A stretch of 64,000 nt of DNA. Origin: Hydrogenophaga sp. (GTDB lineage: Bacteria > Pseudomonadota > Gammaproteobacteria > Burkholderiales > Burkholderiaceae_C). This document shows, piece after piece, positions 51,191 through 55,689 of this stretch. The translations under genes and the position numbers were made by a program. The notes beneath the pieces were generated by a model. It made no database searches. It was not told the DNA's origin and saw nothing but the letters and a program-made list of their open reading frames with translations. Each line of letters begins with the position of its first letter. Position 1 is the stretch's first letter. The stretch is from the NCBI RefSeq assembly GCF_030373225.1, contig NZ_JAUCZG010000007.1, forward strand, positions 15,807 through 79,806, written 5' to 3'.

Positions 51191-51664
51191 ATGGAACCCA
51201 GCCCCGGCGCTCTCGACCGCATCGACCTCAAGATCCTCAAGCTGTTGCAGGCCGACGGCCGCACCACCAACCTCAAGCTGGCCGATGCGGTGGCGCTCTC
51301 GCCCACCGCCGTGCTTGCGCGCACCCAGCGGCTGCAGCGCGACGGATTCATCCTCGGCTATGAAGCGCGGCTGAACCCGCTCAAGCTCGGTCGCGCCATG
51401 CTGGTGTTCGTCGAGGTTTTGCTCGACCGCACCACGCCCAATGTGTTTAACGAGTTCAAGGCCGCGGTGCAGGTGCGCGACGAGATCATGGAATGCCACA
51501 TGGTGGCCGGTGGCTTCGACTACCTGCTCAAGACCCGCATGGCCGACATGGCGGCCTACCGCGACTTCGCCGGCAGCGTGCTCTGGCAACTGCCGGGCGT
51601 GCGGGAAACGCGCACCTATGCGGTGATGGAAGAGGTGAAAAACAGTTCGCGGCTGCCGCTGTGA
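51191..51664 (+). CDS. Lrp/AsnC family transcriptional regulator (PutR-like, divergent from putA)
   Basis: LDRIDLKILKLLQADGRTTNLKLADAVALSPTAVLARTQRLQRDGFI plus an AsnC ligand-binding domain. The track start at 51182 is a TTG; the first ATG is at 51191. Confidence 0.85.
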   Translation: MEPSPGALDRIDLKILKLLQADGRTTNLKLADAVALSPTAVLARTQRLQRDGFILGYEARLNPLKLGRAMLVFVEVLLDRTTPNVFNEFKAAVQVRDEIMECHMVAGGFDYLLKTRMADMAAYRDFAGSVLWQLPGVRETRTYAVMEEVKNSSRLPL

Positions 51665-51692
51665 TGGTCTTCAATCGCACCGGGGCTCCGTG

Positions 51693-53246
51693 TCAAGCGG
51701 AAGGCGACATGCAGCGTCGGCGCTTCTCTTCGTACTCATCCCTTTTCACCGCGTGGCTTTCGTACCGGCGATTTTCCTCTCGTCGATATGCCTCGTGGGC
51801 GGCATCCCATGCGAGGATTTCGGGCGTGTTCAACACGGGCCCGAGGCCTATCCACTGATAAGGCTCGCGCCAGTGATGCCTTTCATATTGATTCCAAAGA
51901 CCGTCAATGCCGGAATAAAACGAGATGACAGGGCGGAAAGCGAAAGATATGTTGTGTGACGAGAAGTTGAGGGTTGTCAAACTCACCACAGTGCCGACGG
52001 GCGCATCACGGAAAAGACCCAATTCGTCCGGTTGAGATGACCCTGCAAGTAAAACAGCGCCCATGAACATCCTTTCATAAGTGCACTCCTTTTGATGCAA
52101 CGTCCCAGGACTCTCCGGGTAAGGGTGGTCGTCCCATTCACACGTCTGATAGCCACCCATCCCCGGGCCCAGAATGCGCCAGGTTTCCGAGTACTTTTGC
52201 GGGTATTGAACAGGTTCCTTGAACCATCCAGACGTGGTTTTGACAAAGACTTGGGGAACGGTGGTTTCATATACGACCTTGTCAACGCGGTGTGAGGCGA
52301 CACTCGGTCCAAGCCTCTCCATAGGCCTGAACCCTCCCAACCAGGGGTTTGAGATGAGATCCGGGTACGGCGGCATCGGCTTGCGGGGTGCGGCGTCGAG
52401 TTCGTGCAAGGCGGCCACCACATCATCGCGAATCCTCCCGGCCGTCGACAGCGCCGGATTGAGATAGATCTCGAGCAGCCCGTGCCCGATCAGATCGCGC
52501 GAACCGTTGAGCCCGGCGGGGCGGTGCACATAGCCCGGAATCAGGTCTGTGATGGCGGCCACGGTGCCGGTCAGCCTCAGTGCATTGATGACACTGTCCT
52601 TGTCCGCCAGGGTGTGCCGGCCCGACAGGGTGGGGGAAGCCGGCGCCACATGGACCACCCGCACATGCTCGTTGCCGGTGCGGCCCACAGCGTGCGTGCG
52701 GGCCTGGTTCACAAACAGGTTGCCCTGGGAGTGCGCCAGGAACAGCATCTTGCGATTCAAACCGGCCCAGCGGTCGATCTGTTCCTTGTGCCTGGCCGAC
52801 ACGCTGGCCATGCCGGGCTCACCCACACCCGATATCAGCCCCTTGACGGCGGCCGTGGTGTACGCGTCGAAGAAAGACCCGAGCAAGGCCGCCAACGACG
52901 GGATGGCAGAAGTCAGCGCATTCCACCATCCGCCTTCACCCTGCGTGGCCGAAAAAAACAACTCGAACCGGCCAGCCAGCAGACCGTTCTGCTCCTGCAG
53001 CCGCTGCTCGAAGGTCTCCACAAAATCCGTGAAACCCTGGGTGTCGTTGTAGAAGAGTTCGTAGGTGATGGGTTCGCCGGCGGGGGTGGTGGGGCCGTAG
53101 AGGTCCTCCAGCTTGCGCCTGGCTTCGTTCGCTTGCGACACTGTCGTTCGAACACCGTTAAAGAATCCGAATACAGCACCGCTGCCTTCACACTGCTCCT
53201 GCCCCAAGGCGGGGATGGGCAGCAGCAGTGTGACGGACAAGATCAT
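51693..53246 (-). CDS. secreted alpha/beta-hydrolase-like protein (AHSQG nucleophile-elbow motif) with uncharacterised C-terminal domain
   Basis: The start at ATG 53246 was chosen by alignment with the paralog fragment: a signal-peptide-like MILSVTLLLPIPALG. Also LFLAHSQGN (a GxSxG-type motif) and a possible His in DLIGHGLLEIY. The last roughly 220 aa are Trp/Tyr/Pro-rich with no family recognised. G+C is visibly lower than in the flanks. Confidence 0.55.
   Translation of the reverse strand: MILSVTLLLPIPALGQEQCEGSGAVFGFFNGVRTTVSQANEARRKLEDLYGPTTPAGEPITYELFYNDTQGFTDFVETFEQRLQEQNGLLAGRFELFFSATQGEGGWWNALTSAIPSLAALLGSFFDAYTTAAVKGLISGVGEPGMASVSARHKEQIDRWAGLNRKMLFLAHSQGNLFVNQARTHAVGRTGNEHVRVVHVAPASPTLSGRHTLADKDSVINALRLTGTVAAITDLIPGYVHRPAGLNGSRDLIGHGLLEIYLNPALSTAGRIRDDVVAALHELDAAPRKPMPPYPDLISNPWLGGFRPMERLGPSVASHRVDKVVYETTVPQVFVKTTSGWFKEPVQYPQKYSETWRILGPGMGGYQTCEWDDHPYPESPGTLHQKECTYERMFMGAVLLAGSSQPDELGLFRDAPVGTVVSLTTLNFSSHNISFAFRPVISFYSGIDGLWNQYERHHWREPYQWIGLGPVLNTPEILAWDAAHEAYRREENRRYESHAVKRDEYEEKRRRCMSPSA
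52937..53102 (-). repeat. 166-bp exact repeat, copy 1 (inside the full-length hydrolase gene)
   Basis: Identical by eye to 54045-54210 (offset 1108 bp). Confidence 0.85.
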
Positions 53247-53277
53247 GCTCACTGGATTGCAAAGGAGGAGCACCTTT

Positions 53278-53817
53278 TCAATCACAGCCATTCCCCTTGA
53301 ATGAACCAGAAACCGATCCGCTGGCTGCACGGTTAAATTCTAGGTAGCTCGTTAGGCGTCTTCTGCTGTTCGTGGTTATGGCTTCCAACTCTCGAGACAT
53401 TTGAGATCCGCGCGCGAATGCATCGATATCCACGAAGGTGTCAAAAATGCAGTCAACTGCCTTGGAACTGATACGAACCACCTCTTCCACTGCAAGTGAA
53501 TCCCGCTTGTCCACCAACAGCATCTGTTGGTACGCCCGCGCCATCTGCATCGCCGCCGCTCTCTCCGCCGGCACGGTGTACTTCCTCTCGATGTGCTGCT
53601 CGATGTCGTCCCGAACGCCGTTCGCATTCGCATCGGTCCCCGCGATGCTGTCGCCGCGCTCCAGCGTAGGCAGCACGCCGCTGGCTTCGAGCCGGGCAAC
53701 CTGTTCTTGCGGAGTGAGCACCGGCCCCGCGTCTGCGGCCTTGCCTCCGCCACCACAGGCCGTCACGGCAAAAGCGAGCGCCAACCCGCACACACGGATT
53801 CCCTTCACTTCTTTCAT
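53278..53817 (-). CDS. lipoprotein, unknown function (paralog 1)
   Basis: The ATG at 53817 follows GGGAGGAG. Lipobox-like FAVTAC followed by GGGG. Two conserved Cys in the C-terminal half. No family recognised. Confidence 0.6.
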   Translation of the reverse strand: MKEVKGIRVCGLALAFAVTACGGGGKAADAGPVLTPQEQVARLEASGVLPTLERGDSIAGTDANANGVRDDIEQHIERKYTVPAERAAAMQMARAYQQMLLVDKRDSLAVEEVVRISSKAVDCIFDTFVDIDAFARGSQMSRELEAITTNSRRRLTSYLEFNRAASGSVSGSFKGNGCD

Positions 53818-53940
53818 GGTGTCTCCTCCCTGAATCGATGGTTCGCCTGGCTTCAACACGGGTGGCGTTGAACAGCCGGCGCTCGGCAGTATCGAATCAA
53901 AGAACCCCACCATGGACACTGGGGGAGGTACAGAAATCGC
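53506..53940 (-). repeat. about 435-bp near-identical repeat, copy 1 (5' half of the lipoprotein gene plus about 120 bp upstream)
   Basis: Matches 54623-55057 (offset 1117 bp). The 264 bp at 53637-53900 have no mismatch by eye, and mismatches accumulate toward the 3' side of the gene. Confidence 0.85.
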
Positions 53941-54012
53941 ATCTTTTTTGCAAAGACCAGATCGGGATGGGGACCCATGCTCGCCGATCGGTCTGGCTGT
54001 CGACAGGCGCCC

Positions 54013-54366
54013 TCAACTCCGTCGATGGTCGCGTGCAACCTTCACACCCTGCGTGGCCGAAAAAAACAACTCGAACCGGCCAGCCAGCAGACCGTTCTGC
54101 TCCTGCAGCCGCTGCTCGAAGGTCTCCACAAAATCCGTGAAACCCTGGGTGTCGTTGTAGAAGAGTTCGTAGGTGATGGGTTCGCCGGCGGGGGTGGTGG
54201 GGCCGTAGAGAATTTCCAGATGATCGAAGGCCGTTTGCTTGGCTTGTTGCTCTGTGGTTTTCACACCGTTGAAGAATCCAAACACCACTCCTGCGAAGCA
54301 GCTTTCTTCAGCTGCAGCGCAGATCGGAAGCAGCGCCAGGACCAAGGCCAAGGCCAGCCTTCTCAT
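54013..54366 (-). pseudogene. truncated paralog of the AHSQG hydrolase gene (N-terminal about 110 codons only)
   Basis: Encodes MRRLALALVLALLPICAAA...VVFGFFNGV...LYGPTTPAGEPITYELFYNDTQGFTDFVETFEQRLQEQNGLLAGRFELFFSATQG, then 10 unrelated codons and a stop. It lacks the AHSQG region entirely. Confidence 0.7.
54045..54210 (-). repeat. 166-bp exact repeat, copy 2 (inside the truncated hydrolase paralog)
   Basis: Identical by eye to 52937-53102. Identity stops exactly where the truncated ORF leaves homology. Confidence 0.85.
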
Positions 54367-54394
54367 TGCGGCAGCGGGCGCGGTGCGCATGTGT

Positions 54395-54934
54395 TCATTC
54401 ACAGCTGCCTCCCTTTGGCATCGTGGAAACCGTTCCGCTTCGTGCCTTGTTGTATTCAAGGTAAGCAAGGAGGCGCGCTTTGGTGTTGGTGGTCATGGAC
54501 TCAAGCTCTGCACTCATCCGCGACCGATCCAACAAACCGTCGACAGCAACGAAGGCCGATCTGGCGCAAACAATCGCCAGCGAGCCCGCTTCAGAAGCTG
54601 CATCCAATGCCACTGCATCGCTCTTGTCCACCAGCAGCATCCGCTGGTACGCCCGCGCCGTCTGCATCGCCGCCGCCCTCTCCGCAACCACGGTGTACTT
54701 CTTCTCGATGTGCTGCTCGATGTCGTCCCGCACGCCGTTCGCATTCGCATCGATCCCCGCGATGCTGTCGCCGCGCTCCAGCGTAGGCAGCACGCCGCTG
54801 GCTTCGAGCCGGGCAACCTGTTCTTGCGGAGTGAGCACCGGCCCCGCGTCTGCGGCCTTGCCTCCGCCACCACAGGCCGTCACGGCAAAAGCGAGCGCCA
54901 ACCCGCACACACGGATTCCCTTCACTTCTTTCAT
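54395..54934 (-). CDS. lipoprotein, unknown function (paralog 2)
   Basis: The ATG at 54934 has the same RBS as paralog 1. The first 60 residues are identical to paralog 1, with 6 differences in the first 105. The C-terminal 75 residues are strongly diverged but alignable, with both Cys conserved. Confidence 0.6.
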   Translation of the reverse strand: MKEVKGIRVCGLALAFAVTACGGGGKAADAGPVLTPQEQVARLEASGVLPTLERGDSIAGIDANANGVRDDIEQHIEKKYTVVAERAAAMQTARAYQRMLLVDKSDAVALDAASEAGSLAIVCARSAFVAVDGLLDRSRMSAELESMTTNTKARLLAYLEYNKARSGTVSTMPKGGSCE

Positions 54935-55057
54935 GGTGTCTCCTCCCTGAATCGATGGTTCGCCTGGCTTCAACACGGGTGGCGTTGAACAGCCGGCGCT
55001 CGGCAGTATCGAATCAAGGAACCCCACCATGGACACTGGGGGAGGTACAGAAATACG
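54623..55057 (-). repeat. about 435-bp near-identical repeat, copy 2
   Basis: See 53506-53940. Confidence 0.85.
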
Positions 55058-55146
55058 CAGAAGCTGTTTTATGTGATCGAGTGGCGCATGTGTTGACAGG
55101 CGCACAGGCCTTCGCACAATGGCTCAACCCCCCACCTGGAGTCACC

Positions 55147-55689
55147 ATGCCACGCACCCTCACCCTGCTGCTCGGCGCCCTTGTCCTCGCCTCCATGGCC
55201 CATGCGCAGAGCACCAGGCCCGGCCTGTGGGAAATCAACCAGAAGGTGGGTGGCAATGCGGAGATGGATCAGGCCATGGCGCAGATGCAGCAGCAGATGG
55301 CCGGCCTGTCGGCGGCAGAGAAAAAAATGATGCAGGACATGATGGCCAGGCAGGGAGTGACCTTGCCCACGCCGGGTGCCGGTGGCGGCATGGTGATGAA
55401 GGTCTGCATCACGCCCGAGATGGCGGCGAAGCAGGACATGCCGGTTCAGACCGAAGGCGAGTGCACCACCACGATCACCTCGCGCAGCGCCAACACCCTC
55501 AAGATGAACGTCGTCTGCAAGAACCCGCCGTCTTCGGGAGAGGGCACCTACACCTTCAGCGGCGACACCGCCTACACCATGAAGATGCTGATGAAGACCA
55601 CACACCAGGGCAAGCCGGTGAGCACGACGCTGGACGGCCAGGGCAGGTGGCTGTCGGCTTCTTGCGGAACCGTCAAACCGGTGAAGTGA
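55147..55689 (+). CDS. DUF3617 domain-containing protein
   Basis: Signal peptide MPRTLTLLLGALVLASMAHA, then PGLWEI...Met/Gln-rich segment...CITPEMA...C.TT...MN..C, the typical DUF3617 layout. Confidence 0.65.
   Translation: MPRTLTLLLGALVLASMAHAQSTRPGLWEINQKVGGNAEMDQAMAQMQQQMAGLSAAEKKMMQDMMARQGVTLPTPGAGGGMVMKVCITPEMAAKQDMPVQTEGECTTTITSRSANTLKMNVVCKNPPSSGEGTYTFSGDTAYTMKMLMKTTHQGKPVSTTLDGQGRWLSASCGTVKPVK

Follow-up and report, generated by a model that had tools for sequence, protein, structure and literature searches.

The accessory insert and its site

A 64,000-nucleotide stretch of Hydrogenophaga sp. DNA (contig NZ_JAUCZG010000007.1), hereafter the window, carries an accessory insert in the interval between an Lrp/AsnC regulator gene and a DUF3617 gene. 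The insert spans positions 51666-55080, as judged from the points at which homology to empty sites breaks off and from its G+C content, and its right edge is placed within 55071-55091. It contains four genes only, all on the minus strand, which encode small lipoproteins (LIP) and exported hydrolases (HYD). LIP2 (54395-54934, 179 aa; family hidden Markov model (HMM) E = 3e-77) is followed by a truncated hydrolase gene, the stub (54013-54390, matching HMM positions 13-116 of 327), and LIP1 (53278-53817, 179 aa; family HMM E = 4e-74) by the intact hydrolase gene with which it is paired. On the basis of the open reading frame (ORF) and of homologue lengths, the intact gene extends over 51693-53291 (532 aa), with an alternative start at 53246 (517 aa); the ATG at 53291 appears the more likely start, since the closest homologues are 531-532 aa long.

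The ORF analysis agrees with the original prediction, an earlier note made from the letters of this DNA, as to these four genes, their strand and their order. The same note had placed the array between the putA regulator and the DUF3617 gene, and both neighbours were identified: on the left the Lrp/AsnC regulator, divergent from putA, ends at 51664, and on the right the DUF3617 gene starts at 55147 (Pfam E = 2e-17). The stop codons of HYD (51693-51695) and of the Lrp gene (51662-51664), which is convergent with it, are only 28 nt apart; no terminator-like hairpin was found in the interval (51665-51695).

The insert had been described by eye as richer in A and T than its surroundings, and computation bears this out: its G+C content is 59.6% as compared to 67.3% in the remaining window, about 3 standard deviations under the window mean, and it is the lowest 3.4-kb stretch of the 64 kb. 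The G+C content at third codon positions is 0.67-0.72 in the insert, as against 0.85-0.87 in all but one of six flanking genes; the exception, yggS, has 0.75. Within the insert, the minimum is found in the C-terminal domain of HYD (G+C 0.544). It had also been stated that no integrase, transposase or tRNA lies beside the insert, and this holds in so far as no tRNA was found in the 64-kb window and the insert contains its four genes only. The hallmarks of an islet (an integrase, a tRNA target and flanking direct repeats) were not found at the insert, nor were terminal repeats, and Rfam and promoter/terminator scans of the insert gave nothing of note. Entry by homologous or homology-facilitated recombination is likely.

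The site was compared in relatives by using metagenome contigs anchored on the Lrp regulator, together with genome loci (compared loci are given L-numbers and homologous proteins P-numbers). The regulator directly adjoins the DUF3617 gene in L083, L084 and L086-L090, with Lrp 92-96% identical, so the empty arrangement that the original prediction had left to comparative genomics does exist. Homology to the empty-site contigs L083 and L084 stops at window position 51665 and restarts at 55072-55092. The same site is occupied by a LIP-HYD pair in seven Hydrogenophaga-type genome loci (L001-L006 and L009) and by a diverged pair in L085 and L092, whose HYD proteins are 74% and 48% identical, respectively. 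The insert therefore combines deviant composition with presence/absence polymorphism at a conserved site, as a horizontally acquired islet does, and the proposal of horizontal acquisition stands: the composition deviates from the flanks, and close relatives have the site either empty or filled by diverged alleles.

The predicted exported hydrolase and its lipoprotein partner

In the window HYD, a signal peptide precedes the N-terminal catalytic domain (about 290 aa), and the C-terminal domain (about 220 aa) is beta-rich and ends in a long helix (AlphaFold2 model, pLDDT 83). A signal peptide, with a conserved Cys after the cleavage site, is present in all HYD homologues, confirming that the enzyme carries its own Sec-type signal. 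The GxSxG-type motif that had been assigned to it is actually AHSQG (A-x-S-x-G). The predicted nucleophile, Ser173 of the 517-aa numbering (AHSQGN; codon at 52728-52730, minus strand), and D217 (LADxD) are invariant in sets of 55 and 103 diverse homologues, whereas H255 (GHGLLEIY) is invariant in the 55-member set and at least 90% conserved in the 103-member set; the FFNG segment is also invariant. In the model, Ser173 sits between a strand (166-172) and a helix (175-190), as expected of a nucleophile elbow, and the conserved acid and His follow it in the Ser-Asp-His order of alpha/beta-hydrolases. The model also contains a helical insertion of about 90 residues (72-162), the helical cap. The most conserved stretch of HYD is not the catalytic elbow but residues 62-98 at the start of the cap (window ~52953-53063, minus strand; YELFYNDTxGFxDFVETFEQRLxE..LLxxRFELFF), which overlaps the right recombination arm of the arrays described below.

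Single-sequence and profile searches with HYD and LIP gave no Pfam, NCBIfam, PADLOC or PDB sequence match, and PHROGs gave nothing meaningful; neither protein was placed in a named family, in agreement with the original prediction. In Foldseek comparisons of the HYD model with the PDB, the best meaningful matches were fungal cutinases (template modelling (TM) score 0.45-0.52, probability up to 0.66, E > 0.1) and phospholipase A1, and the weak scores of the full-length model are probably due to dilution by the second domain. Matches to DUF676 were obtained for 17 of 55 HYD members (best E = 0.008) and to Abhydrolase_6 for 4 of 103 (best E = 0.00095), all of them under the curated cut-offs. From the motif and the model topology, mainly, we conclude that HYD is a predicted serine hydrolase of the alpha/beta class.

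Among characterized enzymes, HYD may be closest in fold to minimal hydrolases of the cutinase/CE5 type. The nucleophile elbow of cutinases is GYSQG, and HYD shares with them the S-Q-G elbow (in AHSQG), the Ser-Asp-His order, a small core and the best fold matches (TM ~0.5). However, the Foldseek E-values are not significant and HYD has no Pfam Cutinase match; moreover, HYD differs from them by its helical insertion (about 90 residues) and its additional C-terminal domain (about 220 residues), and cutinases have no partner lipoprotein.

The N-terminal domain of HYD is about 50% identical across phyla, whereas the C-terminal domain varies across the family. The beta-rich domain with a long helix is the Hydrogenophaga type; other members mostly have a C-terminal beta-sandwich, named YfaP-like in one NCBI record, and occasional members have PPC, VWD, Lcl_C or PG_binding_1 domains (the last three are each fused to the hydrolase in single members among P0231-P0371). 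A weak match to ETX/MTX2 (aerolysin-like) was seen in two members (set A1), and this match and the fusions in P0231-P0371 may hint at envelope or surface targeting. The C-terminal domain alone (223 aa) gave 0 matches in the word-indexed search, which missed even relatives that are 73-76% identical overall, so that this result likely reflects a limitation of the tool.

Both LIP1 and LIP2 have the lipobox of bacterial lipoproteins (FAVTAC, followed by GGGG), with a Cys shared by 90% or more of 55 LIP homologues, and both genes have a GGAGG ribosome-binding site 8 nt ahead of the ATG. According to the E. coli rule, Gly at position +2 leads to outer-membrane sorting, and its presence here suggests that LIP is anchored in the outer membrane, facing the periplasm. 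The AlphaFold2 model of LIP1 is all-alpha, with six helices (pLDDT 84.6), and has no fold match in the PDB by Foldseek. Across the family, the loop GxDxNxNGVRDDIE is invariant and two Cys residues (C123 and C178) are conserved as a pair. In LIP1 the loop (residues 60-73; window ~53599-53640, minus strand) enters a helix and resembles a DxDxDG/EF-hand-like calcium-binding loop, departing from the canonical EF-hand pattern at position 8, which is the invariant Arg.

The size of the HYD family was estimated with a word-indexed search, in which 8000 candidates were scored, and with an exhaustive search at the level of 50% identity clusters. The former gave 402 matches and the latter 2271 clusters, 401 of which with E <= 1e-30; the 150 best matches listed in the representative search are all clear family members. 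Hosts belong to the Beta- and Gammaproteobacteria, Campylobacterota, Myxococcota, Bdellovibrionota and other groups. Linkage was scanned in 80 genome loci with HMMs for LIP and for both HYD domains. A LIP gene lies directly upstream of the full HYD gene in 72 of 75 cases, often with an overlap of 1-4 nt; of the other three, one is at a contig edge and two have LIP downstream. Apart from genes of the Hydrogenophaga synteny block, no further gene recurs beside the pair in these loci, and no type VI secretion system (T6SS) genes were found near the pair, so that the lack of such genes, first stated for the window, held across all 80. The G+C content of the module is below that of its flanks in 52 of 67 loci. 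LIP-HYD was also found, annotated as "hypothetical protein", on 18 plasmids (8 conjugative); on large plasmids it lies near partition and MazEF genes, and on some plasmids hypothetical and phage-like genes abound around it. Searches of the literature on YfaP/DUF2135 and on Sec- or type II secretion system (T2SS)-dependent lipase toxins with lipoprotein immunity turned up no account of the LIP-HYD family.

Mosaic structure, allele exchange and one-sided decay

The two modules of the window (module 2, with LIP2 and the stub, and module 1, with LIP1 and the full HYD) align over 55059-54045 and 53941-52937, respectively, but their similarity is far from uniform. In module 2, a left recombination arm (54640-55059, minus strand) covers the stretch upstream of LIP together with the N-terminal half of LIP itself and matches 53520-53941 at about 96-100% identity, and a right recombination arm (54045-54209, minus strand), equivalent to approximately residues 64-118 of HYD (517-aa numbering), matches 52937-53101 at 98-100%. 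The centre that lies between them (54210-54610, minus strand) runs from the C-terminal half of LIP through the signal peptide of HYD to about its 40th mature residue, and is only 42-64% identical to 53102-53492. A unique segment of 103 nt (53942-54044, minus strand) separates the modules; it is outside the repeat, its matches in related loci do not exceed 16-18 nt, and the junction at 54045/54044 is non-homologous. The arms owe their identity either to gene conversion or to serving in recombination.

The same pattern is seen in the proteins. Between LIP1 and LIP2, identity falls from 93% in the N-terminal half to 41% in the C-terminal half, where 33 foreign LIPs are nearer to LIP1, and 104 nearer to LIP2, than is the sister copy; the two C-terminal halves are different allele classes. 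The stub consists of the signal peptide and about 90 mature residues (about 115 in all), followed by 10 unrelated codons to the stop, and has none of the three catalytic residues (Ser, Asp, His). Over its N-terminal 42 aa it is 100% identical to P0008, an intact hydrolase of 541 aa, whose contig (L175) has the order DUF3617, LIP, full HYD, Lrp. L175 aligns to window positions 55300-54045 at 96.4% identity and the alignment ends exactly at the truncation point, while at the Lrp end identity is again 99%; the DNA of LIP2 is 96% identical to the lipoprotein gene of this single-module relative. Because L175 has LIP2 together with an intact hydrolase, and homology ends at the truncation point, we conclude that an older hydrolase was displaced: an L175-like ancestor had LIP2 and a full hydrolase, and an incoming LIP1-HYD1 module replaced most of the hydrolase by way of the non-homologous junction at 54045/54044, leaving LIP2 in place.

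A simple tandem duplication was considered and rejected, given arms that are about 100% identical around a centre of 42-64% identity, LIP C-terminal halves nearer to foreign alleles, and an intact ancestor of module 2 in L175. The tandem lipoprotein and hydrolase array of the original prediction is thus recovered as a repeated pairing, but its two units are not plain duplicates, the incoming module having displaced an older allele. For T6SS immunity arrays, a model of sequential displacement by homology-facilitated illegitimate recombination has been put forward (PMC5361080). LIP-HYD arrays are the mirror image of that model, and their stubs are 5' ends, not 3' ends, of the effector gene. The arm-centre-arm mosaic recurs independently in L005, L019 and L025. 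The largest array observed is that of L025 (a Polaromonas metagenome-assembled genome, 3551-8048), with four LIPs, three stubs and one full hydrolase; its stub breakpoints differ from each other (profile positions 82, 132 and 142).

Exchange is also apparent where a single pair occupies the site. Among same-site loci, flanking proteins are 80-99% identical and HYD 44-77%; L001 and L002 are equally similar in their flanks, but HYD identity is 77% in the former and 54% in the latter. This difference between flanks and HYD indicates that alleles have been replaced at the fixed site.

Comparable variable cassettes between conserved recombination arms are known from Rhs and contact-dependent inhibition (CDI) orphan arrays and from Vibrio cholerae immunity arrays, which also keep displaced modules as orphans; in both cases the evidence favours horizontal transfer over duplication. 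In LIP-HYD, however, the conserved part includes the catalytic domain, there is no large delivery domain, and the variable part is made of the C-terminal half of the lipoprotein and the N-terminus of the hydrolase. The layout is not that of classical polymorphic toxins either: the catalytic domain is N-terminal and conserved, the C-terminus varies and the immunity candidate is encoded upstream.

Decay of the pair is one-sided. At the same site, Hydrogenophaga sp. Root209 (L163, 5001-6431; LMIE01000003.1) has two intact LIPs, but of its hydrolases there survive only 37 aa from the N-terminus of one and the final 40 aa of another; Root209 would represent a natural immunity-only state. On the Photobacterium damselae virulence plasmid pPHDD1 (L176, 2160-4372; NC_014653.1, ~75.2-77.4 kb) there are two LIPs, each followed by an unannotated HYD stub, and a full HYD is absent. 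The related plasmid pdp3 (L177) has one stub and one intact pair, and its LIP is labelled 'chromosome partitioning protein ParA', apparently by misannotation. Comamonas BIGb0124 has an intact LIP and a HYD gene with an in-frame stop ahead of the catalytic Ser, and in L071 and L170 an intact LIP lies beside a frameshifted HYD. An Aeromonas veronii contig (L165, 5001-6344) contains an orphan LIP homologue of 171 aa directly upstream of mazE/mazF, in a mobile region with a run of small hypothetical genes; two large proteins encoded upstream in L165 are unrelated to HYD and have no signal peptide. Conversely, no intact HYD without an adjacent LIP was found wherever the contig permitted the test. 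This asymmetry is typical of toxin and immunity.

A toxin-immunity reading and its rivals

Taking together the observed gene content, export signals, conserved catalytic residues, insert status, displacement history and linkage asymmetry, we favour, with slightly better than even confidence, the view that LIP-HYD comprises a Sec-exported, T6SS-independent lipase-like toxin and an outer-membrane lipoprotein that confers immunity to it, as sequence, structural model and analogy suggest. This reading accounts best for the strictness of the pairing, the decay on one side, the heterogeneity of the LIP arrays, allele turnover at a fixed site, mobility and the presence of export signals on both proteins. 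The original prediction had drawn analogies with enzyme/inhibitor, lipase/immunity and enzyme/chaperone pairs; among these, the evidence favours immunity, in view of the extra LIPs beside stubs, the LIP-only loci and the lack of intact HYD without LIP.

The insert would thus be a mobile, fast-evolving two-gene competition module. HYD, with a putative minimal cutinase-like alpha/beta fold, a predicted Ser173-Asp217-His255 triad, a helical cap and a variable C-terminal binding domain, would be toxic as a lipase or esterase by attacking ester bonds of the envelope. LIP, often translationally coupled with HYD, would bind and neutralize it, so that the producer would be shielded while it exports HYD, and any carrier against HYD coming from neighbours; HYD might leave the cell via the T2SS, vesicles or lysis. 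New alleles would recombine in through the two conserved arms (the N-terminal half of LIP and approximately HYD residues 64-118), the incoming allele displacing the resident hydrolase and the old LIP staying as an orphan immunity gene. In the window, LIP2 and the stub would be the leftovers of a displaced module, and LIP1-HYD the active pair.

The closest known parallel is offered by the T6SS lipase effectors Tle1-5 and their immunity proteins Tli1-5, in which the gene of an envelope-targeting GxSxG-type hydrolase adjoins that of a periplasm-facing, often outer-membrane, lipoprotein. In that system, extra or orphan immunity genes accumulate, and arrays are formed through displacement of the effector by a module that comes in (PMC5361080; PMC9860674). 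LIP, the candidate immunity protein, has the corresponding gene position, lipobox and orphan copies. Unlike Tle proteins, HYD has its own Sec signal peptide and is not linked to vgrG, hcp, PAAR or adaptor genes in the 80 loci, and the gene order puts immunity first. The window protein has no Pfam match to the Tle1-5 families, and a single weak match to Tle3 (E = 0.12) was obtained among 55 members. A T6SS effector identity for HYD was rejected, given its signal peptide and the lack of linked T6SS genes. By analogy, LIP-HYD would work like Tle/Tli without being a member of that system.

The main rival, which we regard as unlikely, makes HYD a secreted esterase or lipase with a nutritional or surface-modifying role and LIP its dedicated periplasmic chaperone, transient inhibitor or outer-membrane anchor, no antagonism being involved. 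Strict pairing, translational coupling and the order LIP then HYD would be expected in this case, as would the highly conserved catalytic domain and C-terminal domains typical of secreted enzymes (PPC, VWD, Lcl_C and beta-sandwiches). In fact, LipA/Lif and CpaA/CpaB, the latter a T2SS substrate with its membrane chaperone, also combine an exported hydrolase with a small envelope-anchored partner that may bind the enzyme in the periplasm. LIP, however, is a lipoprotein with a fold that has no PDB match, and shows no similarity to Lif or to any known chaperone: it has no Pfam match, it has a lipobox instead of a transmembrane anchor, and it occurs in arrays and as orphans. We know of no description of arrays, orphan copies or allele chimerism for chaperones. 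A chaperone or anchor would give no reason to retain old LIP alleles once the enzyme has been displaced, and it leaves unexplained the intact LIPs beside deleted or stopped HYD genes (Root209, pPHDD1 and BIGb0124), the presence of up to four different LIPs per enzyme (L025) and the chimeric allele classes. The two roles are not mutually exclusive, since a T6SS Tli has been reported to be both an activator and an immunity protein (10.1101/2023.03.28.534661).

It is improbable, in our judgement, that the pair is a periplasmic addiction module, in which a stable exported toxin and its antidote selfishly stabilize plasmids or islands. Carriage on large plasmids near partition and MazEF genes, the patchy, mobile distribution and the fact that HYD is never found without LIP would agree with addiction, but arrays of orphan LIPs on chromosomes, and the loss of HYD by displacement while LIP stays, are more easily understood as protection against non-self HYD, and there is no sign of a difference in stability between HYD and LIP. 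We give still less credit to a housekeeping or stress enzyme for envelope lipid remodelling with a regulatory lipoprotein, similar to lipid A or phospholipid deacylases. Both proteins are located in the envelope, the hydrolase has a helical cap and one relative has a peptidoglycan-binding domain; a core function is nevertheless made less likely by presence that varies among very close relatives, foreign composition, allele turnover, frequent pseudogenes and plasmid carriage. Least credible of all is a defence against invaders of the periplasm or envelope (phage or Bdellovibrio-like predators) in which LIP holds HYD inactive until triggered: a mobile, variable accessory module with some plasmid neighbourhoods rich in hypothetical or phage-like genes might suggest it, but no PADLOC model matched, no consistent linkage to defence genes was seen and orphan LIPs without HYD would serve no purpose.

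Several points weigh against the toxin-immunity reading itself, and its weakest step is delivery, as there is no known route for a Sec-exported protein into the periplasm of a neighbouring Gram-negative cell. The assignment of HYD to its class has weak support from Foldseek (E > 0.1) and from Pfam matches, which are under the curated cut-offs. For a toxin, the catalytic domain is unusually well conserved (about 50% identity across phyla), and its N-terminal position, with a variable C-terminus, is the reverse of that in classical polymorphic toxins. A mirror-tree analysis of co-variation between the variable half of LIP and HYD regions gave partial correlations of at most 0.23. Retention of LIP is not universal, because in at least one locus, L171, the pair has decayed completely, LIP included, and some of the frameshifted HYD genes come from metagenome bins and are possibly assembly errors.

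A broader claim, to which we give somewhat less than an even chance, is that LIP-HYD represents a previously unrecognized, widespread class of interbacterial toxin and immunity in Gram-negative bacteria (Beta- and Gammaproteobacteria, Campylobacterota, Myxococcota and Bdellovibrionota). The toxin would be a Sec-exported cutinase-like lipase, released without T6SS, type IV secretion system or CDI; specificity would change by cassette exchange of the C-terminal half of LIP and the N-terminus of HYD, and orphan LIPs would give cross-immunity.

The LIP and HYD families are large, taxonomically broad and unannotated, being "hypothetical protein" in the records inspected, and LIP-HYD is best filed as an effector-immunity theme built from two uncharacterized protein families. 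Conjugative plasmids carry the module, among them the Photobacterium damselae virulence plasmid pPHDD1, so that it may affect plasmid ecology. If the toxin-immunity reading is true, two new families would join the effector/immunity catalogue, lipase-type antagonism would extend beyond contact-dependent injection systems, and LIP-HYD would provide a compact two-gene system for studying how immunity specificity diversifies by recombination.

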